In this document: positions 27,973 through 55,207 of the stretch, piece by piece
Layout: the number at the start of each line of letters is the position of its first letter
Numbering within the stretch: the first letter of the stretch is position 1
Virus record (IMG/VR): IMGVR_UViG_3300046816_000078
DNA: 64,000 nt
Origin: a virus
Strand: one strand, 5' to 3'
Notes under the pieces: generated by a model
Told to the model about the DNA's origin: nothing
Database searches by the model: none
The model's input: only the letters and a program-made list of their open reading frames with translations
Program-made: the position numbers and the translations under genes

Positions 27973-28548
27973 TTATGCTGTCAATTCAACCCACACATCG
28001 GAAATGGTGACAGAGGGAGTACCCGTGACGCTGCTTAGCGTAACGCCAACATCAATCTGTTGCGGCTGCTGCGTCGGGAATGTACTTACCGTGCGCCCGG
28101 CAGCCGTAATGCCCAGCGGGTAAACAACTCCCGTAGCCGTCAAGCCCGTGTTCATAAACGAGAACACTTCGCCTGAGCCATGGATAATACCATTAGCCGA
28201 AACGCCTGTTGCCAGTGCTCGGAACGTGCCATTGTAAACAGCAGTAAAAGCCCAGGCGGTTGCAGATGCAGACACGGCCATACCTGTAGTAGCGCCAAGC
28301 AAAGTTTCAGAACCAATTGCGGCACCAAGTGCGCCGAAGTAAAAACCGATAGCACATGTAGGGGTTGCCGAAGTCGAGGTAATTTCTCCGTGACACCGGA
28401 TACTAAGCCTAGCCCCTGGCTGATAAACAGAAGCAGGGATAACGGGGAAGTTACTTCCGATAAGCCCCGAAGTCAGGGCAGCGGCAGTTACCGCTGTACC
28501 AGCATTATATGCTTGCGGCTGAGCGGGAAACCTGTAAAGTACAGCCAT
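27973..28548 (-). CDS. Hypothetical structural protein
   Basis: 191-aa Ala/Thr/Gly/Ser-rich beta-type ORF in the head module. Confidence 0.55.
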   Translation of the reverse strand: MAVLYRFPAQPQAYNAGTAVTAAALTSGLIGSNFPVIPASVYQPGARLSIRCHGEITSTSATPTCAIGFYFGALGAAIGSETLLGATTGMAVSASATAWAFTAVYNGTFRALATGVSANGIIHGSGEVFSFMNTGLTATGVVYPLGITAAGRTVSTFPTQQPQQIDVGVTLSSVTGTPSVTISDVWVELTA

Positions 28549-31805: not shown

Positions 31806-33260
31806 TTAGAATCCCGCAGGCGCAGCAAGTGCAGCACCGTTGATCTTCTGAATTGCCAGGCCGTAGCGCTGGTAGGTATATGCAAAGTAGCCATAAACCA
31901 CAAGCAACACGCCAAGGGACGCTGCTGCGGGCTGTTCGGCCCTAATGTAAACGGGGTTACCGGCATCTTCCCAAAGGTGACATTCCTGCTGCGGAACCAC
32001 GAAAATGTGGTCCTGGGTACCACCCGTAGGGGCACCAGCCAGTCCAACAGTAGTCACGTTAGCGTCGGTTACAACCTGCATACCGTTAGGCATAACACCG
32101 CTAGAGCCCTGATTGTACGGGGCCGCGGAGTTAGCACCAGCAGCCTTAGCGTCGGGGGCGACGCCCGGCTGAGTAAACGCAGGCCAGGTGCTAGTCAGAA
32201 GCGACTGGAGCCAGAACCACCGGCGAGGGTGCATAATGACGTGAGTCGGATGGGCCAGCCCACGGGTCGCAGTATCACTCTGCGATGCCGCACCCATAAT
32301 CGCGGGATACAGCGTAGGCAGGTCAGCAGTGGTAATCGCTGTAGTAGCGTTACCTACTGCGTCAAGACCCGTAGTAGCCTGGTTCAGCAGAGTGCTGTCA
32401 AGGCTAGTTGCGTACTGACGGAAAAGGTCCTGCATTACAACGTCTTCGATACCAGTTCCACGCTCAATTGCCTGACGTGAAATAGTCTGCTGGCCAGCAG
32501 CAGTCTGCACGTTAAAGGTCAGCAGAGTGTCGTCCATAGGCGTTGCCTGGACGGCGTTAGATTCTGATGCCTGTAGTGCGGTACCCGAAGCGGTCGTAAT
32601 ACGCGAGATATTCAGCGACATACCCGAAGCAGGCAGAGGGTGCTGATTACACATGTCCGCGAATGGACGCAGGTTGGCTACTGCCGGTGCAACCATATCG
32701 ATAAGGTACTGGGGAACAACCAGACCGGAGAAAGCCGAAGTTCCGACTTCACCGACACGCAGTTCCATACCCGCACTGGCGCGGTTAATCTGTTCCTCGC
32801 GCATGTGCTGCTGTAGACGACCAGCGGCGCGAACGTCGTTAGTCGTGTACTGGCGTACAACGTCGTTCAGGAACATCTTACCAGTCGGGTCATTGCCCTT
32901 GTGATAAGTGGTTTCCTCATGGCCGACGCTAACGCTAGCACGCTGGGTAGTAGCGTCACGCTGCGGGAGTCCCGCTGGCGTAGTAGCCTTAAGCAGGTCA
33001 TCATCGGTACGAGACTCATCGGCCTGTACCTGACGTGCCTTAGCCAGCTTACGCCCAATGGACGCCTGGTCAACGCGAGAATTCTGCACAGTATCCTTGA
33101 GCGAGTCAAAGCGTGCATCTTCCTCGGGAGACAGGTCGGTGCGCATTTCCTGCTGAGTGGTAGCTAGAATAAGCTCCATCTCCTTGCGGGCGCGCATTTC
33201 CCGCTGCTGAGCCGCTTCCAGCTCAATTTCCATGGAAGCGACAAGTTCCTTAATATTCAT
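31806..33260 (-). CDS. Major capsid protein, HK97 fold with N-terminal coiled-coil delta domain
   Basis: 484 aa. N-terminal about 100 aa helical and charged, scaffold-like. Follows the protease and portal. Confidence 0.85.
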   Translation of the reverse strand: MNIKELVASMEIELEAAQQREMRARKEMELILATTQQEMRTDLSPEEDARFDSLKDTVQNSRVDQASIGRKLAKARQVQADESRTDDDLLKATTPAGLPQRDATTQRASVSVGHEETTYHKGNDPTGKMFLNDVVRQYTTNDVRAAGRLQQHMREEQINRASAGMELRVGEVGTSAFSGLVVPQYLIDMVAPAVANLRPFADMCNQHPLPASGMSLNISRITTASGTALQASESNAVQATPMDDTLLTFNVQTAAGQQTISRQAIERGTGIEDVVMQDLFRQYATSLDSTLLNQATTGLDAVGNATTAITTADLPTLYPAIMGAASQSDTATRGLAHPTHVIMHPRRWFWLQSLLTSTWPAFTQPGVAPDAKAAGANSAAPYNQGSSGVMPNGMQVVTDANVTTVGLAGAPTGGTQDHIFVVPQQECHLWEDAGNPVYIRAEQPAAASLGVLLVVYGYFAYTYQRYGLAIQKINGAALAAPAGF

Positions 33261-33437: not shown

Positions 33438-34652
33438 TTAGTCAATCTCGGCGGATCGGTCAAGCTGGTCGAGCTGCCTGCGGTAATCTTTGTTAATCGA
33501 CTTAAGCTCGCGCATAGCTGCGGCTGCCGAACGGGTGTGAGTAGGCTCGGGAGCCGACGCCAGTTCTTCTTCTGCATCGTCAAGAACGCGCTGGGCATCT
33601 GAATGTGCCTGAGCTACGTTTGCGTACAGTTCTGCATTGCGCCTGATCACTGTTTCGGCCGCATCCCTAATCTCGGGGACTAGCGTCACGGAATCTCCGC
33701 GCCTATGCAGTCGGTTAAAAGCCTCACGCACGACAACTTCGGGCATGTGCTCAAGATCCTCAAGCCAGTCAGCAGCGCGAGCTGCAATGCTGGTAAACGG
33801 ATTAGCCCCGAAGTTAACTGCCGAGACATCGCCGCGATTAATGTTAAGTTGCTTAAGGGTAAGCTGCGTGTAATCGTCATCCCAGACGTGATCCTCAATG
33901 CGGAATGCAAACGACATTTCATCGACAATCCCGTCATCAATGGCGGATGCCAGATCCTTAACGTCCTGCCTCTCGGCATTCAGCCAGCTTTGGATATGCA
34001 TACCTGTAGTATCGCTGCGAAGGACCAGAGTCGGATTACCATTACGGGACCTCGACCGCGCCATTGCGACGCCCAGGTGATTCACCAAGAATGCTACATC
34101 GGGAGTCTGTGCGAGAGAACGGTCTAGGGAATGCTGGTCAACCACTTCCATATACGGACCGGCCATATCCCACATTTCGTAACCGCGATTGTAAATGGTG
34201 GCGTATCCTTCAACCTCATAAACCGATCGGCCATCCTGCTTAGTGTACTTGCCTCGAAGCTCAGACGGGAATCCCCTGCGGCGCATTTCTCCACCGGGAA
34301 CATCCCGGTAATGCTCTAGCCGGAAGTTACGCATTTCGTCAAGAGTTGACATGCGATTCTTTTCCGCAGCCTGCACCTTTGTCAGAAGACCGTCCAGCTT
34401 TGTCTGAGCGTCAGCCTTGTTTGTGAGTCCGTCAGTCTGAGAAAGCCTAGACAGCGCGGCCTTTACGCCAGCGGCATTAGGTGGGCTCGACGGGGAGTAG
34501 CGGTAAGGCAAAGCATGGGCTGCCTGAGTCTTCGGGTCGCCCGCTTTCTTGCCCGCGCAAATACCGTCGTAAAATGCTGCGGGATCGTCTGAGCTTGCGC
34601 CTGCCGCCCACGCCTTATTAGCGTCCCACGTACTGAAATCAATAGTAGCCAT
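33438..34652 (-). CDS. Capsid maturation (prohead) protease, HK97 family, with C-terminal helical extension
   Basis: VEGYATIYNRGYEMWD...VAFLVNHLG core resembles the S78 prohead protease. Lies between the portal and the capsid gene. Confidence 0.75.
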   Translation of the reverse strand: MATIDFSTWDANKAWAAGASSDDPAAFYDGICAGKKAGDPKTQAAHALPYRYSPSSPPNAAGVKAALSRLSQTDGLTNKADAQTKLDGLLTKVQAAEKNRMSTLDEMRNFRLEHYRDVPGGEMRRRGFPSELRGKYTKQDGRSVYEVEGYATIYNRGYEMWDMAGPYMEVVDQHSLDRSLAQTPDVAFLVNHLGVAMARSRSRNGNPTLVLRSDTTGMHIQSWLNAERQDVKDLASAIDDGIVDEMSFAFRIEDHVWDDDYTQLTLKQLNINRGDVSAVNFGANPFTSIAARAADWLEDLEHMPEVVVREAFNRLHRRGDSVTLVPEIRDAAETVIRRNAELYANVAQAHSDAQRVLDDAEEELASAPEPTHTRSAAAAMRELKSINKDYRRQLDQLDRSAEID

Positions 34653-34679: not shown

Positions 34680-35984
34680 TTATGGAGTGGAGCCGCTAGG
34701 CGGTGGGTTATTAGCTCCACCTTCGATTTGAGTGTCGATTGCAGGGTTGACGTTGGGGTCGCCGGGATCTCCGGGCAATATGGCCGAAGCCTTACCGTGG
34801 ACAAGTCCTGCCTTAAAGTATTCTTCGTAGTCGTCATCACTTGCCGGATCGCGGCCGAATACGGCGCGTGCCTCGGTAACTGTGATTGCACGACAATCGA
34901 TCTGGGTCTTAACCCATTCAGCCCTAGTAACCGGGTCCATTCGCATAAGATAGTCAGTGTCAAACTCAAAGAACCTCGGGCGCGGAAGAATGTCAGTTAG
35001 CTTTGCTTCACGCCGGGTAATTGTCGGTCCCAGGTGCATGACCAGGAATTGCAGGTTACGCTGAATGATGTTGGAATAGGTGATGTGCGAACCGCCCGAG
35101 ATAATAGCGTCGATCATATCCGCAGGTACGTTAAAGAACCTGGCAACGTCAACGCTGTTAAGCTTTGCGCCCTCGATCCAGTCATTAGATGCACCTTGCG
35201 CAGACAGCAACGTGTATTCCCAGTCATTGCCGTGAATGAAAGGTTCATCCATAGCCTGCGATGCACGCCACGATTCTGCGACGATTGCCGCTTCCTTGTC
35301 GTTGATCTTTTTCTGGGTATTCTGCAAGCTGGCGCGGGGTCCTTGACCAGACGTAAAGAACTCAGTCGCAAATTCCTGAATGGAATTGTACTGCCCTAGT
35401 GTGTAAGCCGCGTATGTAACGGGGCTCAAGCCCACGGGCAGGCCCGCGACGGTGTACTGCTTTTCATGCCAGATAAACTTAGGGTCGAACTCAGTGCCGT
35501 TAATCCGGTAACTGGTGATATTCATACCCTTAGCACTAATGACTACCGACGAACTTGGCACTAGCTCAATAACGGCCGGTGTCCTAGTTCGCTCGTCCCA
35601 CTGGTTAATGATGCCGATAGCGTTACCTGTTCGGTCCAGCTCCACCTGGCTCGAATAAAGGAAATGGATAAAATCAATTCCGCTCATCATCGGAGTAGGT
35701 GCAGCATCGATCTTGTAAGGAACCTTAGTATCAGGCAAATTCAGCTCGCTGTAAACTCGCCAAGGCAACGTCGAAATCAGGTCGGCCCTGATTCGGATCG
35801 CAGCCCATACTGCGGAGTTACGCATTGCGGTATCGAGATTAACGGGGGCGCTACCGCTAGCGCCGTTATTGTAAACCCTGCGAGGAATTAGATCTGACGA
35901 CTGAGAAATTCCCCACAGCGGGGTATTACTTACACCAGTTCCAAGCGAACCCCGTTCTTCTTTACTTCGGAAAACTAGTCCCAT
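34680..35984 (-). CDS. Portal protein
   Basis: 434 aa downstream of the large terminase. NSAVWAAIRIRADLISTLPW is typical of HK97-type portals. Confidence 0.85.
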   Translation of the reverse strand: MGLVFRSKEERGSLGTGVSNTPLWGISQSSDLIPRRVYNNGASGSAPVNLDTAMRNSAVWAAIRIRADLISTLPWRVYSELNLPDTKVPYKIDAAPTPMMSGIDFIHFLYSSQVELDRTGNAIGIINQWDERTRTPAVIELVPSSSVVISAKGMNITSYRINGTEFDPKFIWHEKQYTVAGLPVGLSPVTYAAYTLGQYNSIQEFATEFFTSGQGPRASLQNTQKKINDKEAAIVAESWRASQAMDEPFIHGNDWEYTLLSAQGASNDWIEGAKLNSVDVARFFNVPADMIDAIISGGSHITYSNIIQRNLQFLVMHLGPTITRREAKLTDILPRPRFFEFDTDYLMRMDPVTRAEWVKTQIDCRAITVTEARAVFGRDPASDDDYEEYFKAGLVHGKASAILPGDPGDPNVNPAIDTQIEGGANNPPPSGSTP

Positions 35985-35985
35985 T

Positions 35986-36282
35986 TCATCGCCTCATATC
36001 AATAGCAGCCAGAATGATAAACAGTCCCCACAAGATACCGCCAGCGGGACGGTAAATAGCTGCTACACTCAGGGAGACAATTGCAGCGCCAACGGTTACC
36101 AGTACTGCGGCACCGTTAAACCTACGGGCGAAAAACACCTTAACGGCACCACCGCCTCTTGCGCCTACGGCGCGAACGTTTCTACTGATGAGAACACTTG
36201 CACGGGTAAGAAACCTCTGAGTGTTCTTTCGGGCTTTAGATAGTGATGCCCTTTTCGGCCAAGGCTTCCAGGTCATCTGCAT
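35986..36282 (-). CDS. Small membrane protein, start uncertain
   Basis: The track ORF overlaps the terminase by 47 nt. An internal GTG start (MFFARRFNGAAVLVTVGAAIV...) would give a 2-TM 50-aa product. Confidence 0.3.
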   Translation of the reverse strand: MQMTWKPWPKRASLSKARKNTQRFLTRASVLISRNVRAVGARGGGAVKVFFARRFNGAAVLVTVGAAIVSLSVAAIYRPAGGILWGLFIILAAIDMRR

Positions 36283-37882
36283 CTATAATCCCTCTTTCGT
36301 AAAGACGGCGGATATCTTCCAGACCGTAATGTCCTGATCGGTACATTTGAACGACCCGCTTAAGGTCGAAGTAAACTGAATCAGCGGCGTCGTAGTCGCC
36401 TTCATCACCAAATTCCATAAAGCCCCAATACGCGAACGCTGCGGCCATCAGCGGAGCTTGTTCCGAACCGGCGTTAACACGATCGAACGCCCTCGACTCG
36501 CTAAGCTTCCGCCAGTCCGCACCCGCGATAGCGGTGCGCCAGCTAGCCTGACCATAATGCCTCAAGGTATCATCCCTGAATGCATCATACAGCAGCCCGG
36601 AAGCGTGCGCGACTTGTGAAGCCTGCAACGTTTCTACGGGAATCCCGGCCTTTTCCATATCGGTGATTAGCGAACCTGCTGCGGCCCTCTTATCGATGAT
36701 CCACTTGATAGGCTTCCACCTTTCGTGGATCTCCTTAATTCGAGCAAGCAGCCAACCCGTACCCGACCTGAATTCGATGATCTGAATTCCAGTTCGATTA
36801 TCAGAACCTCGGAATCCCGCGACAGAAATAGCGGCACAACTGCGGTCAAGCGCAATGTCAACGGCGAACACGGGGCGCTGTACGCGCTCTGGTTCGGCCC
36901 TCTTATCCTTTGTGAGCTTCCACCATTTCTCAGGGATAACTGCCCAGCCCTCGGAATCAGCAGGCCACTGTCCGACGCCTAGACGTTCGCGCCACCATTC
37001 AGGTTCATCGCCCTCGAACGCATCGCGTTCCTTTTCGATAAAGCGCTTAGTGATGCGAATGCCGTAACCTGGGTTGGCTCGGGCTACTGCTTCCTCACTG
37101 TCAGGATCATCATGCTTATCGCAATCAAATTCACAGTATTCGTCGCATATGTCAGCGGAATACTCAATATACAGCAGGCTATCGCTGGTGCCTGCAAGCC
37201 CTCGACGCCTGACCTTAGCGGCCTGCGTAGAAGTTTTAAGACCGGCTGAGCCAGCGTAAAATACTTGGGGGTTTGGTCGTGCTGAAAGGGAAGGGAGCGA
37301 AGCTCCGATTTTCCCCGCATCAAGAATCATGTCTTCGTCGTAGGCGATAAAGTCTCCGGTGAATCCTCGACCGGAACCGGCGCTACGTGCAATAAAGATG
37401 AGTCGCTTTCGTGCATCTTCTAGGACATGCTTGCCACCGGAACCAATGATAATGGTGGGCTTTGGTTTTGTTTCGATGAACTCGCGCCCATAGGCTGACG
37501 AGTGACGACCGATCTGCATATACAAATCGTGGTTGTTTTCGATCAAGCGCCACACTCGCTGATAGTGTTCGCTAGCAGTTTTGTGTTCGTGCGCGGTATG
37601 AATGAGCAGGCGGTCGGACTTAATGCAGAATAGGCCGAACAATTCCCTAGCTTCGTAGATCGAGCCTTTACCATTCTGCCTTGGTACGGTAAGCTTAACT
37701 TCAAACGCAGACCACAGCCCATCGGCATCCCTGGCCAGCGCATGTTTCAGTGAATATCGCTGCCAGTCATCGAGATCTAGGCCGTGCTGCTTTGCATAAT
37801 CAACAGCGTCGTTGCCTGCATCCAAATTGTGGTGCTTCGGGATATGGTAAAGGCGGGGGCGCTGGTCGCCAATTAGCGCCAT
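36236..37882 (-). CDS. Terminase large subunit
   Basis: 548 aa with a Walker A-like PRQNGKGS, an ATPase N-domain and a nuclease C-domain. Flanked by the HNH and portal genes. Confidence 0.9.
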   Translation of the reverse strand: MALIGDQRPRLYHIPKHHNLDAGNDAVDYAKQHGLDLDDWQRYSLKHALARDADGLWSAFEVKLTVPRQNGKGSIYEARELFGLFCIKSDRLLIHTAHEHKTASEHYQRVWRLIENNHDLYMQIGRHSSAYGREFIETKPKPTIIIGSGGKHVLEDARKRLIFIARSAGSGRGFTGDFIAYDEDMILDAGKIGASLPSLSARPNPQVFYAGSAGLKTSTQAAKVRRRGLAGTSDSLLYIEYSADICDEYCEFDCDKHDDPDSEEAVARANPGYGIRITKRFIEKERDAFEGDEPEWWRERLGVGQWPADSEGWAVIPEKWWKLTKDKRAEPERVQRPVFAVDIALDRSCAAISVAGFRGSDNRTGIQIIEFRSGTGWLLARIKEIHERWKPIKWIIDKRAAAGSLITDMEKAGIPVETLQASQVAHASGLLYDAFRDDTLRHYGQASWRTAIAGADWRKLSESRAFDRVNAGSEQAPLMAAAFAYWGFMEFGDEGDYDAADSVYFDLKRVVQMYRSGHYGLEDIRRLYERGIIDADDLEALAEKGITI

Positions 37883-37890: not shown

Positions 37891-38124
37891 CTACTTAAGA
37901 TCGTACTCCCTGGTTGAATTACACAGGTCGTGGGCTGGTTTAAGATTATCGTAAGCATGAGTGCCGCCTAGGAATATCGGTATAACGTGGTCGGCGGTGA
38001 TATCGCCCTTGTATCGGAAAGGTTTCAGGCAGAGCCAGCAAGGGAGCTGGTGACGCCAAGCGTGATAAACCATCTTCTTCTTGTTACGCTGATATTCCGG
38101 GCTCTTATAGTGCCCGTTCGGCAT
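37891..38124 (-). CDS. HNH endonuclease (terminase-associated)
   Basis: CWLC...DHVIPIFLGGTHAYDNLKPAHDLCN. Classic position next to the terminase in cos-type phages. Confidence 0.85.
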   Translation of the reverse strand: MPNGHYKSPEYQRNKKKMVYHAWRHQLPCWLCLKPFRYKGDITADHVIPIFLGGTHAYDNLKPAHDLCNSTREYDLK

Positions 38125-38125: not shown

Positions 38126-38407
38126 TCAATATTTGTTCTCTAGCGACTCTTTATCGGTTGCCTTAGCTCGTGGCATTGCCTCGACCTTTTCTAGTGTTAG
38201 GCGAAGCTCGCGGTTGACGCTCGCTACTGCCACTTTGTCATCCTTGCCGTACTTAGCGTCACCGCTCATCTTGAAAGTAGCATTAGTTCCGTCGAGAACC
38301 TGCGCCAGATTGATCGCCATGACTTCCCATGCGCCGGTAGGTTCGAGAATGCCCCACTCGGTCAGCGTAGTCCTGACAGCTTGTTCGACTTGTCCGGGGT
38401 CCATCAC
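38126..38407 (-). CDS. Hypothetical protein, positional candidate for small terminase subunit
   Basis: 93 aa upstream of the HNH and large terminase genes. Start is either GTG 38407 or ATG 38404, overlapping the Pup stop. No motif evidence. Confidence 0.35.
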   Translation of the reverse strand: MMDPGQVEQAVRTTLTEWGILEPTGAWEVMAINLAQVLDGTNATFKMSGDAKYGKDDKVAVASVNRELRLTLEKVEAMPRAKATDKESLENKY

Positions 38408-38580
38408 TGCCCGCCCTTCTGCACATAGCCGCGAACGAATTCTTCTGCGTTTTCTTCGAGCACTCCGTCAATCTCGTCAAGCAGCGCGTCAATAGCATCG
38501 AATTCCTTGGGAGCTGGAATCGAAGTATCCTCGGTATCCTCGGTATTCTTGGGAGTTGGCTTATTCTTTTGCTCTTTCAT
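38404..38580 (-). CDS. pup: Prokaryotic ubiquitin-like protein (Pup) homolog
   Basis: 58 aa: MKEQKNKPTPKNTEDTEDTSIPAPKEFDAIDALLDEIDGVLEENAEEFVRGYVQKGGQ. The C-terminal 28 aa nearly match mycobacterial Pup as recalled (DDLLDEIDDVLEENAEDFVRAYVQKGGQ), including the terminal GGQ. ATGA overlap with the upstream gene. Confidence 0.8.
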   Translation of the reverse strand: MKEQKNKPTPKNTEDTEDTSIPAPKEFDAIDALLDEIDGVLEENAEEFVRGYVQKGGQ

Positions 38581-38885
38581 TTGGCAGCTACTTTCTCCTG
38601 AATGTCGTGGATCGGATAACCCCTGTCGAGGAAGTTTGTCGAGTACTCTCGGAAGTGGTGAGCGCAGAAATACAGGTCGCCGCCCGGAACCTCGATCTGG
38701 TACTTTGCGTGAGAGATAGGCTTGCCATCTACCTGCGAATATCCGCACTTGTCACAAGCTCGCCAAACCCTTTTTACGACCACGGATACGACTTCTTTGA
38801 CCTTCTTTGTCGCAGGTGTCATAATGCCCATAGACTGATGAGGCTGTGGGCGGGGGCGGTCATCATCGCTGCTGAGTCTGCCCAT
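38577..38885 (-). CDS. Zinc-ribbon-like hypothetical protein
   Basis: Start at MGRLSS (AGGAGG SD 9 nt upstream). CDKCGYSQ...LYFCAHHFREY is a pattern common in small actinobacterial and phage proteins. Confidence 0.6.
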   Translation of the reverse strand: MGRLSSDDDRPRPQPHQSMGIMTPATKKVKEVVSVVVKRVWRACDKCGYSQVDGKPISHAKYQIEVPGGDLYFCAHHFREYSTNFLDRGYPIHDIQEKVAAK

Positions 38886-39054
38886 GCCGATCAGCCTCCT
38901 AATGAGTTTGTACGGGTTCCAGATCATTGTTACGACATCTCTGCGTGTAATTCCACGCCATTATTTAATGGCTTAATTGGGTCCAATCATGTGATGGGAA
39001 AAGGCTCTAATCACTTCGGGTTTGTTCGAGTAGATGATAGGGTTCGCAGCGCTC

Positions 39055-39115
39055 TGACCTGCGGTTTTGTGTGTGTGAGGGGGTCTGGTGTTCGACTTAA
39101 GCCTGTGACCTGCGG
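39055..39115 (+). repeat. Two copies of the TGACCTGCGG motif
   Basis: tgacctgcgg at 39055-39064 and 39106-39115. The same 10-mer recurs at 41091, 41146 and 41173, and in reverse upstream of three promoters. Confidence 0.7.
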
Positions 39116-39178
39116 AAACTCGAGAAATTCAAGGTCTATAGAAAATGAAATGGGGACCAAGAGGGTCGGCAAGAATCG

Positions 39179-39209
39179 AATAAAAAATGGGCAAGGTAGT
39201 TAGCCTTGC
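39179..39209 (-). terminator. Intrinsic terminator downstream of the HNH gene
   Basis: Minus strand GCAAGG-CTAACTA-CCTTGC followed by CCATTTTTTATT. Confidence 0.55.
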
Positions 39210-39362: not shown

Positions 39363-39815
39363 TTACCACTTAGGCAAGCGGGTATTAGTAGGCGAGCTAT
39401 CACGCTTTACCCGGCCATCCCTACCATATCCCCCACCATCCTGGGCAGGCATTCCTTGATAGCCCCTATCACTACTAGGCTTACTACCCATAGCACTAGG
39501 CATAGGCACACCACTACTAGACATAGCACCATTGGTCCTATCACCTAGGCTAGGCATACCCTTACCACGCTTACGCCTTATAGCCTTAAGCCTATTACCC
39601 AACCGCGCACCCGCACTCTCATTGCACGTACCATGTTCAATGCGGGTAGGCCCATTGCTGCCACCCATGGCGACGCTTATCACATGGCCTAGCTGTAGTC
39701 GCTGCCATTTGTACATAGGGCGATTACAACGTGGGCAGGGTGAGCCATTAACCATTGCGTCAATAGCCCTAGTCCTGTCCTTTCTATGCTCATATCCATA
39801 TTGCGGCTTACCCAT
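39363..39815 (-). CDS. HNH endonuclease
   Basis: CPRCNRPMYKWQRLQLGHVISVAMGGSNGPTRIEHGTCN motif. Start set at MGKPQYG (GGAG SD). The longer track start runs into the repeat array. Confidence 0.7.
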   Translation of the reverse strand: MGKPQYGYEHRKDRTRAIDAMVNGSPCPRCNRPMYKWQRLQLGHVISVAMGGSNGPTRIEHGTCNESAGARLGNRLKAIRRKRGKGMPSLGDRTNGAMSSSGVPMPSAMGSKPSSDRGYQGMPAQDGGGYGRDGRVKRDSSPTNTRLPKW

Positions 39816-39836
39816 GGGTACACACTCCATATCAGA

Positions 39837-39899
39837 TAGGCAGGCTGAGAGGCTAGGCAGGCTAGCTCCATAGGCAGGCTGAGAGGCTAGGCAGGCTAG
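39837..39899 (+). repeat. Two 29-nt direct repeats TAGGCAGGCTGAGAGGCTAGGCAGGCTAG
   Basis: Copies at 39837-39865 and 39871-39899. Member of the GCTGAGAGGCT motif family. Confidence 0.85.
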
Positions 39900-40134
39900 G
39901 CACATAGGTATCGTTACCTAACCGTGACATACTGGGTATGTAACGAGTGAACACCGTTAACTTTTGAAAAGATTTAGTCAGTCAGGATTCCAGACTTACC
40001 GCTGTATGGGCCTGAGAGCAACGCTGGCACTCTGAGAGTAAGCGTGTGCAATGCTAGCTACACGGTGCTGCCGCACCGGGCGCACAGACCGTCTGAGAGC
40101 CGCGCACCCGCTGAAAAGAAGTTTCCGAGATCCC

Positions 40135-44485: not shown

Positions 44486-46558
44486 TCATCGTTTGATTTC
44501 ACAAACATCTGTTGAGCAATACAACTCACCTTCGGCCGCAGGCATTCCCGCGCTAGGTGAATACAGCAAATTCCAGTCAATAGGCTTTACGTTAGCTCGC
44601 ATAGATTCCCATACTTCCCGCGATACGCGCTGATATGGTGCCTGCGCATAAACGCCATCCGCCATAGGCATAACGGACAGACTTTTAAGCTGTCCATCGA
44701 ATGTCGCTAGCAATGCTGGAATCTGTGATTTCTCAGCTTCGCTAAACGTTACCGTTACCGACACAGAATTATCGGACCAATAGCGTTGGCACAGTTGCGC
44801 CAGATGCGTTTTTTCCCATATGGATACGTCGCGTTCCGATCGCATTTCCGGTCCTTCTACGGGAAGTGAAATAACGACGGTCGTGTCTGGATTCATTTGT
44901 GACGGTTCTACAGGATATCCGGCATCGCGCATAATCTGCACAATCGGGTTAGTAACATTTTCCCTAACGGTCCTAACGTAGTAGCCGGATTCACGCGGCC
45001 AATGACAGCCGGGAGTTACGCCAAACAATAGGCTAACGGTTCCGCTAGGCTTTACGGTAGTTACCTTAATGGATTCCCTAACACCCAACCATTCAGAGTA
45101 TGTTTTGTCCCAATCGCGGATAGCCTGGTATCCGGCATTCTGCCACATTCGCAATTCAGACCAACCGCGAGACTCTACGAATTGTGCGAGTCCAGTCATG
45201 CTAGTTCCGATACGCGCATTGCGCCGCATTACCGCATTGGTTTCTGGCCATTGCGTCATTAGCAGAGTTACGCTCTTGCCATAGAGGTAAGCGAATTTGA
45301 GTGTACGTAGGTAATCGTCCATTGAATCATGGTGCGTTGGGTACGTTTCGACCAATGTGCAAAGTTCATTGTTTTCTAGCGGTTGCTCACCGCACGGATT
45401 GACGCCCATTGCGCGCTGATCACGATTATTAGGTTCGTCTGCCAGCCTGCCATACTTGCGTACAACGTCCAACCAGATAATTCCCGGTTCGCCATTAGAC
45501 GCCATGCGTTCGGCAAGGTGTGAATAATCCTGCCCAGACTCCGCGATAACGGAATTGTTAGATGTGTATCCCCATCCGTCAGGTCCCATTCGCTCGGGGT
45601 TAATTTCCCAATCCTTTAGATCCAAGAATGCGATATCGTTAGCGTCACCCAAAGCGATTTCTGCGGATGATCGAACATTGGCGGCGACAACGCATTTACC
45701 AATCATGTTCATAACGTCCACGATATCGACAGATGACAATAGTTCGCCAGCCCGGTTATCGAGCATATCGCGAATTCGAGTGTGCAATTTGATTAGCGGT
45801 TCCGGCCCTGCCGACGTTCCGCCAAATCCAATGATAGGTTCACCCTCTGCGCGGATAGCGGAGTAATCAAATACCGGCCTGCGTTTTCCGCTTGTGAAAT
45901 AGGAATCAAGCAATACGTCAAGAGACTTACACCATCCCTCGCGACTATCCTCAATTGTGCGAGTAAAGCCGCTAGGTGAATCCGGGTGATTCAATGTAAT
46001 TTGGTTTGCGCCTCTTGTGTCGAATCCTACGCCTACGCCCAGCATTGACATATTCATCAAACGGCTAAACGGACTCGATAGCTCGTTATGCAAATCGTAG
46101 GTAGAAATGAATCCGCAATTCTGCAAAGCGCTGGAATCATTACGACCGTTAACGAATTCGGTGCCCATCATCCATAGACCGCGCCCCGGAGGTGACCACT
46201 TGCCATCGAATACGCGCTGATATGCTTCCTGTGCGCTTATCTGTGCCTGTTCTTCATTCCATGGGAGTCGCAAACGTCGCGTATGGTCTTTTTGAATGCT
46301 ATACATTCCTTCGATAACGCGGCGCAATCCTTCGTAGAATCGTTCCTTAGCTCCATTGGCCTTGAGTCGAGAATACTTAGTAACCCAGGAATGTTCGCCC
46401 AATGTATTACCCGCACCCATAGGGAATCCCCAAGATGGTGTCTTATTCGCATAGGGCTTTACGAATTCGTCATGCAGTCGAAAACTTAGATATGGAAATT
46501 CATTGTCGCGTTCCCTGGATTCGCAATCCTTTGTGCGCTGCTTTGACCAATCCTTCAA
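44486..46558 (-). CDS. nrdJ: Ribonucleotide reductase, class II (B12-dependent) type
   Basis: 690 aa with the NPCGEQPLENNELCTLVE active-site region and overall length typical of monomeric class II RNR found in actinophages. Confidence 0.8.
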   Translation of the reverse strand: MKDWSKQRTKDCESRERDNEFPYLSFRLHDEFVKPYANKTPSWGFPMGAGNTLGEHSWVTKYSRLKANGAKERFYEGLRRVIEGMYSIQKDHTRRLRLPWNEEQAQISAQEAYQRVFDGKWSPPGRGLWMMGTEFVNGRNDSSALQNCGFISTYDLHNELSSPFSRLMNMSMLGVGVGFDTRGANQITLNHPDSPSGFTRTIEDSREGWCKSLDVLLDSYFTSGKRRPVFDYSAIRAEGEPIIGFGGTSAGPEPLIKLHTRIRDMLDNRAGELLSSVDIVDVMNMIGKCVVAANVRSSAEIALGDANDIAFLDLKDWEINPERMGPDGWGYTSNNSVIAESGQDYSHLAERMASNGEPGIIWLDVVRKYGRLADEPNNRDQRAMGVNPCGEQPLENNELCTLVETYPTHHDSMDDYLRTLKFAYLYGKSVTLLMTQWPETNAVMRRNARIGTSMTGLAQFVESRGWSELRMWQNAGYQAIRDWDKTYSEWLGVRESIKVTTVKPSGTVSLLFGVTPGCHWPRESGYYVRTVRENVTNPIVQIMRDAGYPVEPSQMNPDTTVVISLPVEGPEMRSERDVSIWEKTHLAQLCQRYWSDNSVSVTVTFSEAEKSQIPALLATFDGQLKSLSVMPMADGVYAQAPYQRVSREVWESMRANVKPIDWNLLYSPSAGMPAAEGELYCSTDVCEIKR

Positions 46559-46594: not shown

Positions 46595-47473
46595 TTATTC
46601 GTAGAAACTCTCCGGCGTCTCAATTGGCGGAACTATCTTATGACTCTCAACGAGATCTTGCATAATCCCGGCATCACCCATAGCGCGATGATAACGCGAT
46701 GCGAGATTGCTATTAGAGCCGGGCTTTTCCTGTCCAACCCATTTGCGATCCTTGGCACTACTGCCAATACTCGGATGCCACAAATGAATTACGCCACTGG
46801 GCACAGTTTTATGCGGAACGTATAGCGTGTCTAGCGCGTGCATAAATGCTACATCCTCGCCACCCCAACCGTAGAAACGAATATCCATTTTTCCGGCAAT
46901 GGTGAAAGCTTCTTTGGGCATGATCTGAATAAGTGCGCCGAACCAGTGACCGATATCGGTTGCGGTGGATTGCTCCAATTGATATTTGGAAGGCTGCGCC
47001 GCAAAGAATCGCGGAGGGTCGGCCGGGTTAGAATTCAGAATTTCAAGTGACGCTGTTTCTGTCAATCGGTAGAAATGACGGTAAGGCATAAACCACAAAC
47101 GATTACCGCGCTTGATTTCTTTTCTGATTTCCTTAGCACAGTACTCGATTACATCACCGGCCAAATAGCAATCGGCATCGAGAATTACAATTACGTCGCC
47201 TTTAGCTTTTTCCGCTGCTTTGTTTACTGCGGCAGTTTTGCAGAAAGGAATGTGATCATCGGAGCTGACGATAATTTCCGCGCCGGGTAGTTCATTCTCC
47301 CAATAGCACCTAAGCCAATTCCAGGTTTCTGCGCGGCGTGCATTATCGGCTCGGAATGGGACTAGCAAAGAAATTCCGTGGCCAGGCTTGCGCCGCCTAT
47401 TGACAAAGACGTATGCCAGGATTATCAGGGTAATGATCATCCCGATGATTCCCGCTAGCTGTTCCCATGTCAT
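46595..47473 (-). CDS. GT-A fold glycosyltransferase (GT2 / galactosyltransferase-like) with N-terminal TM
   Basis: N-terminal TM helix. VIVILDADCY is a DxD motif. YGWGGEDVAF matches the Glyco_transf_7C-type signature. Confidence 0.7.
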   Translation of the reverse strand: MTWEQLAGIIGMIITLIILAYVFVNRRRKPGHGISLLVPFRADNARRAETWNWLRCYWENELPGAEIIVSSDDHIPFCKTAAVNKAAEKAKGDVIVILDADCYLAGDVIEYCAKEIRKEIKRGNRLWFMPYRHFYRLTETASLEILNSNPADPPRFFAAQPSKYQLEQSTATDIGHWFGALIQIMPKEAFTIAGKMDIRFYGWGGEDVAFMHALDTLYVPHKTVPSGVIHLWHPSIGSSAKDRKWVGQEKPGSNSNLASRYHRAMGDAGIMQDLVESHKIVPPIETPESFYE

Positions 47474-48222
47474 AAGCTGCCAATCAATTTATCTAGTGTG
47501 CGGTAAGCGTCCCAAAGCTCATGTTTGCGATTCCCCACGTTTCTGTTATTCGCGTGGTAAGTCTCACCGACAACGAGTTTCGCGCCGATCGCTGCGGAGT
47601 AATCCTCGAATTTGAATAGGCCACCCTCTTTGTCGAATCGCGGCGTGTATTCAAATCTGCGAGGTATCCCGAATGAGTCAGCAACGATAATCCCGTGTAG
47701 TGAGCTTGAAACGATCTTCTTACATCTGCCTATAAGTTTGATCACAGTTAGCGGATCATCCTCGGGACGTATCACCTTGGTAGTCCAACGTGAGTTGTAC
47801 CAAGTTTTATTGATTGAAAGACTAGAATCTGACCAGTGAGGCACTATCCCTAGATCGATGTCTCGACGTTGCGGACCAACTAGCTCATTCGCGAGCAAAC
47901 CAGGATCACCCAAAGCTACATCATGCGGCCACGCCTTAGCGCTTAGCGGACCGCGTAGGGCTAGAACGCGCTGAGATCCACCGTAAAGCCTTAGAACGCT
48001 GTCCGGGTACAACCTGCCCGCCCCTAGGATGAAACCGTCGTACAGAGGCGGCAAGTGCTCTAGCACGCTACCGACAGAAACCACGTCAGACTTACCAATG
48101 CGTTCCCATTGCGCGGTATGTGATGTGAAGTGATTTATCAAGAGAGGCACCATTGCATCCCCGAAATTTTCACGTCCTGTCCACCAATACGCTTTCACAA
48201 TTGACGGAGCTTTGCGGCGCAT
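47470..48222 (-). CDS. Polysaccharide pyruvyl transferase-like protein
   Basis: N-terminal WWTGRENFGDAMV and C-terminal VSSSLHGIIVADSFGIP resemble PS_pyruv_trans signatures. Start moved to MRRKAPS (AAAGGA SD). Confidence 0.55.
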   Translation of the reverse strand: MRRKAPSIVKAYWWTGRENFGDAMVPLLINHFTSHTAQWERIGKSDVVSVGSVLEHLPPLYDGFILGAGRLYPDSVLRLYGGSQRVLALRGPLSAKAWPHDVALGDPGLLANELVGPQRRDIDLGIVPHWSDSSLSINKTWYNSRWTTKVIRPEDDPLTVIKLIGRCKKIVSSSLHGIIVADSFGIPRRFEYTPRFDKEGGLFKFEDYSAAIGAKLVVGETYHANNRNVGNRKHELWDAYRTLDKLIGSL

Positions 48223-48371
48223 AGTGATATCCTTTATGTAGAGACGCCAAAACGCACTAATGCGGTGAGGCATTAGCGCGATTGGGTTGTTCAATTGTCA
48301 TGTTTTGAAGAGAACTCTTCAAATTGCGGAGATTACCGCGAACGCGAATGCGTTTTATGAATTTTTATGAG

Positions 48372-48444
48372 CTGACTAGATTGGACTCGAACCAATAACC
48401 CTCGCCTTAACAGGGCGGTACTTTGCCGATTAAGCTACTAGCCA
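48372..48444 (-). tRNA. tRNA-Asn (GTT)
   Basis: Acceptor TGGCTAG/CTAGTCA, anticodon loop CTGTTAA, T-arm ATTGG-TTCGAGT-CCAAT. Confidence 0.8.
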
Positions 48445-48456
48445 ATGTAAAACTAG

Positions 48457-48530
48457 TACCCCTTATTGGATTTGAACCAATAACCTCTAGGATCTAAGCC
48501 TAGCGCCTCTGCCAATTGGGCTAAAGGGGC
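48457..48530 (-). tRNA. tRNA with Leu anticodon TAG but short (5-nt) variable loop
   Basis: Acceptor GCCCCTT/AAGGGGT (G1-U72), A73, Leu-type D-loop AATTGGCAGA. Anticodon stem CTAGG/CCTAG with loop CTTAGAT. T-arm ATTGG-TTCAAAT-CCAAT. Confidence 0.65.
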
Positions 48531-48627
48531 ATTAAAGATTGTAGCCTTTCCGCCGTACTGTAGGCGCGGAATTAAGAATACGTCTATTCATAGGTAGTGG
48601 TCTGCACACCGCATTCGTACAATCTAG

Positions 48628-48701
48628 CGCATCTAATCGGACTCGAACCGATAATTCAGGTTTCGTAGACCTGTGTGTTATCCGATTACTACTATAGATG
48701 C
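48628..48701 (-). tRNA. tRNA-Arg (ACG)
   Basis: Acceptor GCATCTA/TAGATGC, anticodon stem CAGGT/ACCTG with loop CTACGAA, T-loop TTCGAGT. The D-stem is weak. Confidence 0.75.
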
Positions 48702-48795
48702 ATTGTAAAACTGTGCCAATGCCTCACCGTCAATGTCTGCGACATTCCCCGTAGGGCACACTAGCTTGAGCTTAGGTTATCGGCACTGGCACTAG

Positions 48796-48870
48796 TAGGC
48801 GTAAAAGGATTTGAACCTCTGATCTTTTCCTTATCAGGGAACTGCTTTTACCGGACTAAGCTATACGCCT
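48796..48870 (-). tRNA. tRNA-Ile (GAT)
   Basis: Acceptor AGGCGTA/TACGCCT, anticodon loop CTGATAA, T-loop TTCAAAT. Confidence 0.8.
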
Positions 48871-48874
48871 AAAG

Positions 48875-48949
48875 CGGGACTAACGGGATTTGAACCCGTG
48901 GCTTCTACCGTGACAAGGTAGCACTCTAACCTAACTGAGTTATAGCCCC
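48875..48949 (-). tRNA. tRNA-Asp (GTC)
   Basis: Acceptor GGGGCTA/TAGTCCC, anticodon stem CTACC/GGTAG with loop TTGTCAC, T-arm ACGGG-TTCAAAT-CCCGT. Confidence 0.85.
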
Positions 48950-48970
48950 ATTGTATTAAATTGTAAGTGG

Positions 48971-49042
48971 AGGCGGAAACGGGATTTGCACCCGTCTGGA
49001 AAGGTGTTGCAAGCCTTCGCCTAACTGCTCAGCCATTCCGCC
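48971..49042 (-). tRNA. tRNA-Cys (GCA), CCA encoded (48968-48970)
   Basis: Acceptor GGCGGAA/TTCCGCC, U73 discriminator, anticodon loop TTGCAAC, T-loop TGCAAAT. Confidence 0.75.
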
Positions 49043-49046
49043 ATAG

Positions 49047-49120
49047 TGGGACCGAAAGGAATTGAACCTATGGCCTATTGGATTTCACCCAATCGCTCTA
49101 CCTAGCTGAGCTACAGCCCC
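49047..49120 (-). tRNA. tRNA-Phe (GAA)
   Basis: Acceptor GGGGCTG/CGGTCCC, D-arm TAGCTCAGCTAGGTAGAGC, anticodon stem ATTGG/CCAAT with loop GTGAAAT. Confidence 0.85.
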
Positions 49121-49146
49121 ATGTAATTCGTATTTAATTGTATTAG

Positions 49147-49218
49147 TCGGGATGGAAAGAATCGAACTTTCTATCTCCTGGTTCCAGGCCAGGCACGCTA
49201 CCATTACACCACATCCCG
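49147..49218 (-). tRNA. tRNA-Pro (TGG), apparent C33
   Basis: C1-G72 and A73 (Pro-like). Anticodon stem CCTGG/CCAGG with loop CCTGGAA. T-arm GAAAG-TTCGATT-CTTTC. Confidence 0.65.
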
Positions 49219-49259
49219 TTATATCGCTCAATGGCGATATCGATCAATTGTAATACTAG

Positions 49260-49330
49260 AGCGGGTAGCCGGTATCGAACCGGCAAAATCTGCTTGGAAG
49301 GCAGATGGTTTACCGTTAGCCTATACCCGC
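49260..49330 (-). tRNA. tRNA-Gly (TCC)
   Basis: Acceptor GCGGGTA/TACCCGC, U73, anticodon stem TCTGC/GCAGA with loop CTTCCAA. Confidence 0.85.
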
Positions 49331-49417
49331 GTGACTTAAACGGTCAGCAGTCGCGTAGCGTGCTGCTGTCCTATTCAGTTGTTTATTTAATTGTATCATA
49401 CGGTACTGACATTCTAG

Positions 49418-49491
49418 AGCCCAGTATCGGAATTGAACCGATGACCTGCCGATTACAAAACGGCTGCTCTCCGCATCTGAGCTAACCGGGC
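49418..49491 (-). tRNA. tRNA-Thr (TGT)
   Basis: Acceptor GCCCGGT/ACTGGGC, D-arm TAGCTCAGATGCGGAGAGC, anticodon loop TTTGTAA, T-arm ATCGG-TTCAATT-CCGAT. Confidence 0.8.
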
Positions 49492-49698
49492 ATGTGCGGT
49501 TTTACCTATACAACCGCCAAGGTGACAAACTAATCCAGGTAGTGAAGTAACCCGCTACCCTTTAGATATCGGATCACCGCCTAGGTAATCAAACCCCAAT
49601 ACGACCAAACTCTTGAATAAGATTGCATATCGTTCACATAATCCCCATTCTGTAGTCTAGCTATTGGATAGATTCCTAGGTTGTTAAATTGGTAATGG

Positions 49699-49770
49699 CT
49701 CCCGCGTCTAGAGTCGAACTAGAATTGGCAGGTTCAGGGCCTGCTGTCCTTCCATTTGAACGAAACGGGA
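49699..49770 (-). tRNA. tRNA-Gln (CTG), apparent C33, CCA encoded (49696-49698)
   Basis: U1-A72 and G73 (Gln-like). Anticodon stem GCAGG/CCTGC with loop CCCTGAA. T-arm TCTAG-TTCGACT-CTAGA. Confidence 0.65.
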
Positions 49771-49785
49771 TTAGGCGTTAAAGAA

Positions 49786-49917
49786 TTAACGCCGCGTTAC
49801 AGCAGAAACTACGATTACAACCAGCAGAATAATAGCAACCCACCATAGGACGTGAAGCGCAAATCCTGCGCCTGCAAATAGCAGCAGCAATAGCAGCAGT
49901 AGAATTAGAAGTAGCAT
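49786..49917 (-). CDS. Small Leu-rich membrane protein (43 aa)
   Basis: MLLLILLLLLLLLFAGAGFALHVLWWVAIILLVVIVVSAVTRR with AAAGGGGGG SD. Preferred over the overlapping 70-aa track ORF in another frame. Confidence 0.45.
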   Translation of the reverse strand: MLLLILLLLLLLLFAGAGFALHVLWWVAIILLVVIVVSAVTRR

Positions 49918-49931
49918 ATTTCCCCCCTTTC

Positions 49932-50147
49932 TTAACGCCTAGGTGGCAAAGGACAAACAGCAGGCAGCAACTCGGGTGCAATGAAATCAACTAGATCCGT
50001 CCACTCTGTTCCGCCATCGTCAACATTTCCGTTGATTGGATTTCCGTCCATCTTTCGCCTGTTAGCAAAGAATGCGGCAGACATCATATCATCGGTGTCC
50101 ATATCGTTCTGTTCACAATAGCTCACATAATCTTGTACCGTGGTCAT
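49932..50147 (-). CDS. Hypothetical acidic protein
   Basis: 71-aa ORF with a strong GGGAGG SD, embedded in the tRNA array. Confidence 0.6.
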   Translation of the reverse strand: MTTVQDYVSYCEQNDMDTDDMMSAAFFANRRKMDGNPINGNVDDGGTEWTDLVDFIAPELLPAVCPLPPRR

Positions 50148-50169
50148 GTGATACCTCCCTTATCAATAG

Positions 50170-50240
50170 CTGGAAATGTAGGAATCGAACCCACGTCAAC
50201 GGGTTTGGAAGCCGTTGTGTTACCACTACACCAATCTCCA
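50170..50240 (-). tRNA. tRNA-Trp (CCA)
   Basis: Acceptor TGGAGAT/ATTTCCA, D-stem GTGT/ACAC, anticodon loop TTCCAAA, T-arm GTGGG-TTCGATT-CCTAC. Confidence 0.8.
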
Positions 50241-50362
50241 ATGCGGATTACACTTAGCTCTTTACCGGCCGGATTATCTGCACCGTGTAATCCTTCCCTG
50301 TATGGTCGTGAGAATCATACAGGGATCTTAGACCTAGATCACGAGGAAATAGGTGGTCTAAA

Positions 50363-50512
50363 TTAGTACCGCGAGCGGCGCTTTGCCGGGGTTTCCTTAG
50401 CCTTATCGGCCTTGTAATGCTTAAGGAAATTCAGTTCACCCCAGGTAAGTGTTACCTCATTGCCATCACTAACGAACGTAATGGTCCTATCATCAAAATC
50501 TACAACAGTCAT
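50363..50512 (-). CDS. Hypothetical protein (49 aa)
   Basis: MTVVDFDDRTITFVSDGNEVTLTWGELNFLKHYKADKAKETPAKRRSRY with AGGGAG SD. Confidence 0.45.
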   Translation of the reverse strand: MTVVDFDDRTITFVSDGNEVTLTWGELNFLKHYKADKAKETPAKRRSRY

Positions 50513-50682
50513 TGCGACTCCCTAACGGGCATCCCTTAATTAATGTGCCCTAGGTAGTAAAGGGATTCATACCTACCCAGGATTCTAAAAGTTTATGGGT
50601 CGTTTGCCCTCGACCTAATTGCCGCCTCGCTAGTTTATAGTCTGCCTATCTCAAGACGTTCCGCCCAGACTTATTCAATTAG

Positions 50683-50755
50683 TAGCGGGTACCGGCTTTG
50701 CTCCGGTGGTTTCAGTTTATGAGGCTGACGTGTTACTGAACTACACTAACCCGCG
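50683..50755 (-). tRNA. tRNA-Met-like (CAT), atypical
   Basis: Anticodon loop CTCATAA. C1-U72 mismatch, T-loop AGCAAAG instead of TTCRANY, and a D-loop without GG. Confidence 0.45.
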
Positions 50756-50818
50756 ATGAGGGGATTTCCTATTTAGATTATAGTAGTTTTTGGAGATCCC
50801 TTAAAGTCTAACTACTCG

Positions 50819-50900
50819 GGTGTCCTACGAGATTCGCACTCGCTATTGCATTACGCACGGATTCACAGTCCGATCCCTCAGCTATTTGGGTCAAGACACC
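50819..50900 (-). tRNA. tRNA-His (GTG) with encoded G-1 and enlarged (about 13-nt) variable region
   Basis: 8-bp GGTGTCTT/AGGACACC acceptor (G-1:C73) closely resembling E. coli tRNA-His as recalled. Anticodon loop CTGTGAA, T-loop TGCGAAT. 82 nt long. Confidence 0.6.
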
Positions 50901-50968
50901 ATAGCGTCCAACGGACGCGATAATGATTACCAATCGTAAGATGGTAATCAGCATTACTTAAAGATTAG

Positions 50969-51145
50969 TTAGTCAGAACTGATAAGAACTAGCAACCCAA
51001 AACCAGCCGGGGCTATCTTAATAGATGTTACTGGCATCTCTCCGCGATTCCTGATAATCTCTGATGTAAGGTCAGGAACCTTAAGGAATACGTCTAGGTC
51101 ATCTGGCAGCTTGTGAACTGCTGCTTTGAATTCTGCCATATTCAT
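50969..51145 (-). CDS. Hypothetical protein (58 aa)
   Basis: Start at MNMAEFKAAV (GGAAG SD). The longer track ORF would overlap tRNA-Ala. Confidence 0.4.
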   Translation of the reverse strand: MNMAEFKAAVHKLPDDLDVFLKVPDLTSEIIRNRGEMPVTSIKIAPAGFGLLVLISSD

Positions 51146-51237
51146 ATCTGGACTTCCAATCTGTAATAGGTGATAGTTTCTCTGGGTATCAATCTGATAC
51201 CTCGGACAGTCACTAACAAACATCCTGTTTTTATTCG

Positions 51238-51311
51238 TGGAGCATAACGGATTTGAACCGATGACATTCTGATTGCAAATCAGACGCTCTACCAAGCTGA
51301 GCTAATGCCCC
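51238..51311 (-). tRNA. tRNA-Ala (TGC)
   Basis: Acceptor GGGGCAT/ATGCTCC with the G3-U70 identity pair. Anticodon stem TCTGA/TCAGA with loop TTTGCAA. Confidence 0.85.
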
Positions 51312-54389: not shown

Positions 54390-54407
54390 CTCTGAAATTC
54401 AAGCACA

Positions 54408-54500: not shown

Positions 54501-54503
54501 ACA

Positions 54504-55202: not shown

Positions 55203-55207
55203 TCACA

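Follow-up and report, generated by a model that had tools for sequence, protein, structure and literature searches.

The 64,000-nucleotide stretch of viral DNA analyzed here (IMG/VR record IMGVR_UViG_3300046816_000078), referred to below as the window, carries a gene for a prokaryotic ubiquitin-like protein (Pup) among its packaging and head genes. The gene occupies positions 38404–38580 on the minus strand and consists of 58 codons and a TGA stop, with a product that ends in FVRGYVQKGGQ. An original prediction, made from the sequence alone, had placed a Pup at these positions, and translation bears out both the coordinates and the quoted product, with the correction that the gene is on the minus strand. 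Read in this direction the interval gives MKEQKNKPTPKNTEDTEDTSIPAPKEFDAIDALLDEIDGVLEENAEEFVRGYVQKGGQ followed by a stop, while a plus-strand reading was dropped as its translation was meaningless. In cells, Dop deamidates the C-terminal GGQ of Pup to GGE, PafA ligates the resulting terminal glutamate to lysines, and Mpa/ARC engages Pup by its central helix and threads it from the N-terminus.

Sequence comparison confirms that the product is a genuine, canonical Pup. It scores 69.5 bits (E=4.7e-19) against Pfam family PF05639 (Pup, gathering cut-off 27) and 68.2 bits against NCBIfam TIGR03687 (pupylate_cterm, cut-off 41.45), so that the profile search proposed as a check of family membership places it far above both cut-offs, and the automatic JGI annotation likewise labels the protein 'ubiquitin-like protein Pup'. 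Over the last 28 residues 24 are identical to M. tuberculosis Pup (PDB 3M91 chain B, in which the terminal residue is an engineered E); the close match had been recognized in the original prediction, whose figure of about 23 of 28 was a slight undercount. The same number of identities is found with the Pup peptide in 7OXY, and alignments can likewise be made with 4BJR, a PafA-Pup fusion, and with 3M9D, in which Pup is bound to Mpa, using the PDB sequences in each case.

The conjugation-type GGQ terminus is intact as claimed, the C-terminus being QKGGQ with TGA immediately after it, and relatives in the same phage clade end in either GGQ or GGE. The PafA- and Dop-binding pair of C-terminal helices (LLDEID..VLEENAE.FV..Y) is predicted to be preserved, with the conserved residues present and all hydrophobic positions retained. 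The N-terminal half is charged and contains prolines, and the protein as a whole is strongly acidic (15 D/E vs 7 K/R) and at 58 amino acids lies at the short end of the size range of the family. The number of residues ahead of LLDEID is 31–34 in the window clade, compared with a median of 39. An M[KS]EQK.K N-terminus and a VP[A/E]PKEF motif are common to the Pups of the clade; the VPxPKEF motif is clade-specific, with its prolines 8–9 residues ahead of LLDEID.

The enzymes of pupylation were sought with Mpa, Dop, PrcB, PrcA, PafA, PafB and PafC sequences from a canonical cellular locus (L009), which were compared to the window by tblastn. Among the proteins of that locus Pup alone matches the window (5.8e-17), while Mpa, Dop, PrcA/B, PafA, PafB and PafC all give E>0.3, in agreement with the earlier observation that no PafA or Dop homolog is visible there. 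The suggested scan of further phage genome was carried out by extending the window through 100% identical overlaps, by 8.6 kb to the left and 2.9 kb to the right, and no PafA, Dop, Mpa or PrcA/B gene was found within the resulting 75.5 kb of a genome of ~96.4 kb. The linkage of pup to dop, pafA and mpa/arc, and often to prcBA, that defines a canonical pupylation locus is therefore missing from the phage locus. As no ligase, deamidase or unfoldase was found in this part of the phage genome, its Pup would act only through the Dop, PafA and Mpa/ARC of the host.

The genes and features around the Pup gene, in the order of transcription, are as follows:

38928–39209, minus strand: non-coding gap upstream of the operon, ~300 bp, with a terminator-like hairpin at 39209–39191 (consensus match only)
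38577–38927, minus strand: DUF7455 zinc-ribbon-like gene (Pfam PF24254, 35.6 bits, cut-off 27)
38126–38404, minus strand: 92-amino-acid three-helix protein, possible small terminase (from its position; AlphaFold2 predicted local distance difference test (pLDDT) score 71)
37891–38124, minus strand: HNH endonuclease adjoining the terminase (Pfam HNH, 36.1 bits; PHROG HNH families)
36236–37882, minus strand: terminase large subunit, TerL (phrog_9, E=4.6e-60)
34680–35984, minus strand: portal protein (phrog_12, E=4.8e-43)
33438–34652, minus strand: head maturation protease (phrog_7053 and phrog_80; Peptidase_S78 in relatives)
31806–33260, minus strand: major capsid protein (phrog_2263, E=2.2e-54)

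The gap and hairpin are likely to mark the start of a late/packaging operon, in which Pup would be the second gene after DUF7455. HNH endonuclease genes at 37891–38124 and 39363–39905 flank the head of this operon. The stop codon of the upstream gene overlaps the Pup start codon in an ATGA junction (GCCAAATGAAAGAG), and the Pup stop has one base in common with the next ATG in a TGATG junction (GGGCAGTGATGGACC); both of the overlaps from which translational coupling had been proposed can thus be read in the sequence. PHROGs contains no family for Pup, for DUF7455 or for the 92-amino-acid protein.

The description of the upstream gene as a zinc-ribbon gene agrees with its PF24254 match and with a CxxC...CxH[H/C] pattern, comprising four putative Cys/His zinc ligands, that is kept in 17 homologs. 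These 17 close relatives, all from the same phage clade, were the only ones returned by the homolog search. The probable true start of the gene is an ATG at 38885, which gives a 102-amino-acid protein beginning MGRLSS and has AGGAGG ahead of it. The constancy of the DUF7455-Pup pair, whose 4-base overlap is kept across the clade, raises the idea that DUF7455, or another phage protein, is an adaptor that steers phage Pup or host PafA to particular targets, either host proteins such as those of defense or proteins of the phage. We regard this as improbable, since gene overlaps are commonplace in phage operons, DUF7455 is not beside Pup in any other viral lineage, and no homology or structural evidence connects it to Pup, PafA or Mpa, its AlphaFold2 model (pLDDT 54) being too poor for a fold search.

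The downstream gene had been named as the putative small terminase. Its position just upstream of TerL fits this assignment and the 92-amino-acid protein is possibly the small terminase subunit, though the label is a weak one. The protein has no Pfam or PHROG match and none of its 23 homologs carries a name. A Foldseek search with the predicted model placed small terminases of Arthrobacter phage Atraxa (probability 0.92) and Rhodococcus phage RRH1 (0.60) at the top, at E=0.5–1.5, while the PDB fold search gave generic helical bundles only. An hhalign comparison with the small terminase (Terminase_4) beside another viral Pup gene (L025) gave a probability of 6%, which is not significant.

An identical Pup protein is found at identical junctions on nine contigs from several samples, and the proposed survey of related phages revealed that the order DUF7455, Pup, 92-amino-acid protein, HNH, TerL, portal is retained in relatives with TerL proteins that are 86–95% identical and Pups that are 59–79% identical. 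Start and stop codons overlap by 1 or 4 bases at the junctions checked in the window and in two relatives (L001 and L002). A Nei-Gojobori codon analysis of seven clade members gave values of omega, the ratio of nonsynonymous to synonymous change, of 0.08–0.25 for the whole Pup gene. Over the last 30 codons omega falls to 0.03–0.11, with synonymous divergence (dS) from 0.8 to saturated, while the N-terminal half is relaxed at 0.16–0.6, except for one pair with an omega of 2.07 and almost no synonymous change. Such a pattern is what would be expected of a disordered tail joined to a constrained binding module, and together with the shared junctions and gene order it indicates that the gene is functional and not a chimera.

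Could the protein have a role apart from pupylation, either as an acidic disordered peptide in packaging or DNA mimicry, or as a non-functional hitch-hiker or assembly chimera? Its strongly acidic composition would suit the former, as would the position of Pup genes next to terminase genes in several viral lineages. In other phages, however, the gene is far from the terminase, and it is precisely on the C-terminal motif specific to Pup, its terminal GG[Q/E] included, that purifying selection is seen. The recurrence of the same junctions in diverged relatives as well as on nine contigs from different samples, together with a gene GC content that matches that of the phage, argues against a chimera. 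We consider a role outside pupylation very improbable.

The location of Pup in the packaging operon was correctly predicted, but Pup does not appear to be an old part of the packaging module. A survey with TerL as a single protein returned two near-identical contigs only, and among 80 distant TerL relatives (24–44% identical, found with a profile query) none has a Pup, DUF7455 or 92-amino-acid gene nearby. This indicates that in this lineage Pup entered the head of the late operon as an accessory gene specific to the clade and is not an ancestral component of packaging. In the 105.9-kb relative L002, genes for a lytic transglycosylase (SLT_3) and a glycoside hydrolase family 12 protein (6707–8430) lie between the 92-amino-acid and HNH genes and TerL, making the junction ahead of TerL a hot spot for accessory genes. 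A Pup of the window subtype (VPEPKEF, GTG start) also occurs on another contig (L017, 5983–6174) near a DNA primase gene, at a locus without the DUF7455, TerL or 92-amino-acid genes of the window. This context suggests that the Pup gene is mobile between phages or between modules.

Pup genes are found in other viruses as well. A profile- and motif-based scan of 2.9 million IMG/VR contigs identified 46 contigs with a Pup gene, which represent ~24 lineages and have GC contents of 0.38–0.70. In all 46 copies the stop codon directly follows a terminal Q or E, and a GG[Q/E] end is seen in every lineage except two; the 34 distinct viral Pups retain the hydrophobic positions of the two C-terminal helices together with the GG[Q/E]-stop. 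No Dop, PafA, Mpa or Prc gene lies within 6 kb of any of the 46 loci, and a motif-based scan of the same 2.9 million contigs with an alignment of PafA and Dop gave no match, compared with 46 for Pup. Among 185,579 cellular reference genomes, by contrast, the 80 best Pup loci are all canonical with the enzymes adjoining; the closest cellular Pup in this set is 58% identical to the window protein.

The neighbors of the viral Pup genes are varied. They include both terminase subunits (L025), TerL (L034, L048 and L036), a prohead protease (L049) and a minor head protein (L041), while in L051–L058 Pup lies beside a UvsY-like mediator and a helicase, and further copies have exonucleases, Sak4, ribonucleotide reductase, DNA polymerase, primase or endolysin as neighbors. 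In L036 two HNH-like open reading frames (ORFs) also sit between Pup and TerL. The C-termini vary too, with unusual ends of QQSGQ (L037), AQGQ (L049), QAGGE (L036 and L038) and RGGE (L028 and L051–L058). Closely related phage Pups, some of them otherwise identical, differ in their terminal residue, Q in one and E in the other (L044 vs L047/L048; P0001 vs P0005/P0007), a single-base change that would dispense with the Dop step.

A tblastn search of 50,697 deposited phage genomes gave a single match to Pup, MT835496.1, and no Pup was found in any genuine phage genome of this set. MT835496.1 (L143, 38633–48716) is a scaffold from human feces deposited as 'UNVERIFIED: Bacteriophage sp.', with an Mpa/Dop ORF at 1802–4867, Pup at 4896–5087 and PafA at 5092–6495. 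It was not counted as a phage Pup because it is an unverified scaffold of high-GC DNA carrying a cellular-type Mpa/Dop-Pup-PafA locus, and it is probably a bacterial contig, or a prophage-carrying one, that was filed as phage. In the openly searchable full-text literature no published report of a phage or viral Pup was found; the matches to 'phage pup' were citations of 'Phage puppet masters'.

The element itself is a phage that is not close to any cultured phage, and a megablast search of 12 kb against deposited phage genomes gave no match. It has ~51% GC and a tape-measure protein at 16726–20751. Independent contigs that encode proteins of the clade measure 96,423, 96,290, 97,317, 95,682 and 105,913 bp, sizes that fit complete genomes of ~96 kb. 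A tblastn search with TerL matched 1712 deposited phage records, nearly all of them actinophages (827 of Mycobacterium, 230 of Gordonia, 200 of Propionibacterium, 174 of Arthrobacter, and others), the best being Rhodococcus phage Jflix2 at 36.7% identity, and the 61 matches to the capsid protein are only to Mycobacterium phages of ~76–113 kb at ~30% identity. These TerL and capsid relatives point to a probably actinobacterial host, as had been proposed. The phage is probably a lytic-type siphophage of ~96 kb, and its host is presumably Pup-proficient. Attempts to name the host through the closest cellular Pups, from an Aeromicrobium metagenome-assembled genome (58% identical) and Nitriliruptoraceae (54%), were abandoned, as these are too distant and their GC differs (0.54–0.68 at their Pup loci vs 0.51 in the phage).

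The window also contains 21 tRNA genes in two opposed groups, at 48371–51311 on the minus strand and 54317–63402 on the plus strand, one of them a 93-nucleotide tRNA-like call at 58154–58246 with an undefined two-base anticodon. An RtcB RNA ligase gene lies directly past the left end of the window (L139, 14726–15877), consistent with a phage that devotes genes to the supply and repair of tRNAs. Adjoining the tRNA array are a class II (B12-dependent) ribonucleotide reductase (44486–46558), a family-2 glycosyltransferase (46595–47473) and a polysaccharide pyruvyl transferase (47470–48294). The latter two are unusual phage cargo and might modify the virion or the host envelope. A protein with a SprT-like metalloprotease domain is encoded at 59203–59733.

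The reading that we favor, with confidence slightly above even, is that the phage encodes a host-dependent, conjugation-competent Pup that sustains or redirects host pupylation. Through translational coupling the gene would be expressed with the late packaging and head genes, host Dop would convert the C-terminal GGQ to GGE, and host PafA would then join the phage Pup to lysines. The additional or replacement Pup could maintain or redirect pupylation-dependent unfolding and degradation at a time when the host's own gene expression is being shut down. That host enzymes conjugate the protein, when it is expressed and whether the phage gains from it are all inferred. The residue classes needed for the Dop and PafA steps appear to be kept in full, with the C-terminal residues the most constrained. 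Ligation by host PafA is favored because of these two features, together with the Q/E variants and the share of GGE ends among viral Pups. The functional options raised in the original prediction were that the phage copy floods or redirects host pupylation, marks host defense proteins for degradation, is a decoy for Mpa, PafA or Dop, or tags phage proteins. Among these hypotheses the sequences narrow the choice slightly, toward a protein with its PafA and Dop engagement retained.

Several considerations weigh against this. The share of the ligation-ready GGE end, 19 of 34 distinct viral vs 11 of 35 cellular Pups, fits a product meant for ligation but is suggestive only, as the viral excess rests on non-independent lineages and a biased cellular sample. 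Pup lies among replication genes in other viral lineages, so late expression is not general. The ~21 kb of the genome beyond the part surveyed could hold an enzyme gene, and the presence of PafA, Dop and Mpa in the host is presumed. The short N-terminal region and the VPxPKEF prolines could weaken the Mpa-binding helix, which would be just as compatible with a non-degradative or inhibitory role.

Such an inhibitory role is the principal alternative. Here an excess of free phage Pup would fill the coiled coils of Mpa/ARC, the grooves of PafA and Dop, or both, and so block pupylation-dependent degradation, which we think unlikely overall but clearly a stronger contender than the other alternatives; its outcome, the protection of phage proteins or of host proteins needed by the phage, is doubtful to the same degree. 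Mycobacteriophages have been proposed to avoid pupylation through lysine deserts, their proteins escaping by being lysine-poor (PMC10665810). In the window the capsid protein (31806–33260) has 2.1% lysine and a lysine-free stretch of 243 residues, half of the protein, and a putative 191-amino-acid ORF at 27973–28548 has no lysine at all, compared with an average of 4.2% over 36 ORFs, but lysine-poor virion proteins would be equally expected if the phage raises pupylation. Engagement of Mpa could be altered by the VPxPKEF prolines and by the shortness of the N-terminal region, although the use of prolines and helix length as a strong case for altered Mpa binding was dropped, some cellular Pups being similarly short. 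The two viral lineages that end without GG, QQSGQ in L037 and AQGQ in L049, are perhaps not open to ligation and might represent naturally occurring decoys. Free Pup-GGQ is reported not to be a proteasome substrate itself (PMC3769308). A pure Mpa decoy would, however, have no need of the last 7–13 residues, yet conservation of the protein is strongest there (FV..Y.QKGG[Q/E]-stop), and a GGE-ending Pup that fits the PafA groove is a substrate and not only an inhibitor, with many of the viral copies ending in GGE.

A broader form of conjugation-competent phage Pup extends to the other lineages. Phages of Pup-bearing bacteria may repeatedly capture an orphan pup and take over host pupylation through host PafA, thereby reshaping unfolding and degradation; we hold this view tentatively, at a little less than even confidence. 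Targets could include proteins of defense or of the stress response, or bulk protein could be broken down to recycle amino acids.

The protein itself is a standard Pup, and what is new is the setting: it is phage-encoded, enzyme-less and recurrent across viral lineages, with a clade-specific N-terminus. To our knowledge pupylation is the only ubiquitin-like degradation tag system of Actinobacteria, and we know of studies of it only as a cellular housekeeping or stress pathway. Pupylation also matters for the virulence of M. tuberculosis. The occurrence of a conserved Pup under selection in some two dozen viral lineages, never with the enzymes, suggests that pupylation serves phages as a target or tool during infection, an idea that was found in no paper of the searchable literature. 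If the takeover of host pupylation is true, no virus-encoded prokaryotic ubiquitin-like modifier would precede this one, and bacteria would have a direct counterpart to the ubiquitin genes of eukaryotic viruses. It also ties to the published idea that lysine-poor actinophage proteins escape pupylation (PMC10665810). The range of viral variants, with GGQ, GGE, RGGE, QAGGE and non-GG ends and short N-termini, could serve as probes of the parts of Pup and may be useful for Pup-based proximity-labeling tools, while a phage Pup could be used as a marker for phages of Pup-proficient hosts. A direct test is feasible, as the peptide has 58 residues and assays with Dop, PafA and the Mpa-proteasome are well established.

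Compared to known systems, the phage protein is closest to cellular Pup, exemplified by that of M. tuberculosis. It belongs to the same curated family and has a similar size and an acidic, disordered-looking N-terminal half, with 24 of 28 residues identical over the PafA/Dop-binding region and GGQ at the very end. It differs in its phage origin and its location at the head of a packaging and head operon, in its shorter N-terminal region with the clade-specific VPxPKEF motif, and in being an orphan that lacks the dop, pafA, mpa and prcBA neighbors seen at all 80 of the cellular loci.

Ubiquitin genes are carried by eukaryotic viruses, an example being baculovirus v-ubi, a virus-borne modifier that relies on the conjugation enzymes of the host. 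By analogy, the phage would have its own copy of a host modifier and would depend on host enzymes. Ubiquitin, however, has a beta-grasp fold and is conjugated by E1, E2 and E3 enzymes, while Pup has no fixed fold and is attached by PafA, a glutamine-synthetase-like ligase, and the host here is bacterial. Phage auxiliary genes that substitute for rapidly turned-over host components, such as cyanophage psbA, offer a second possible analogy and with the viral ubiquitin genes are the nearest conceptual precedents. Each is a lone host-derived gene without the rest of its pathway that would keep a host process going during infection; for the phage Pup that process would be protein tagging and degradation rather than metabolism, with a presumed benefit to the phage. 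The Bil system and CBASS Cap2/Cap3 likewise place ubiquitin-like conjugation within the conflict between phage and host. Those systems are encoded by the host and use beta-grasp modifiers with their own E1/E2-type enzymes, whereas here the modifier is of the Pup type and is encoded by the phage with no enzyme of its own.

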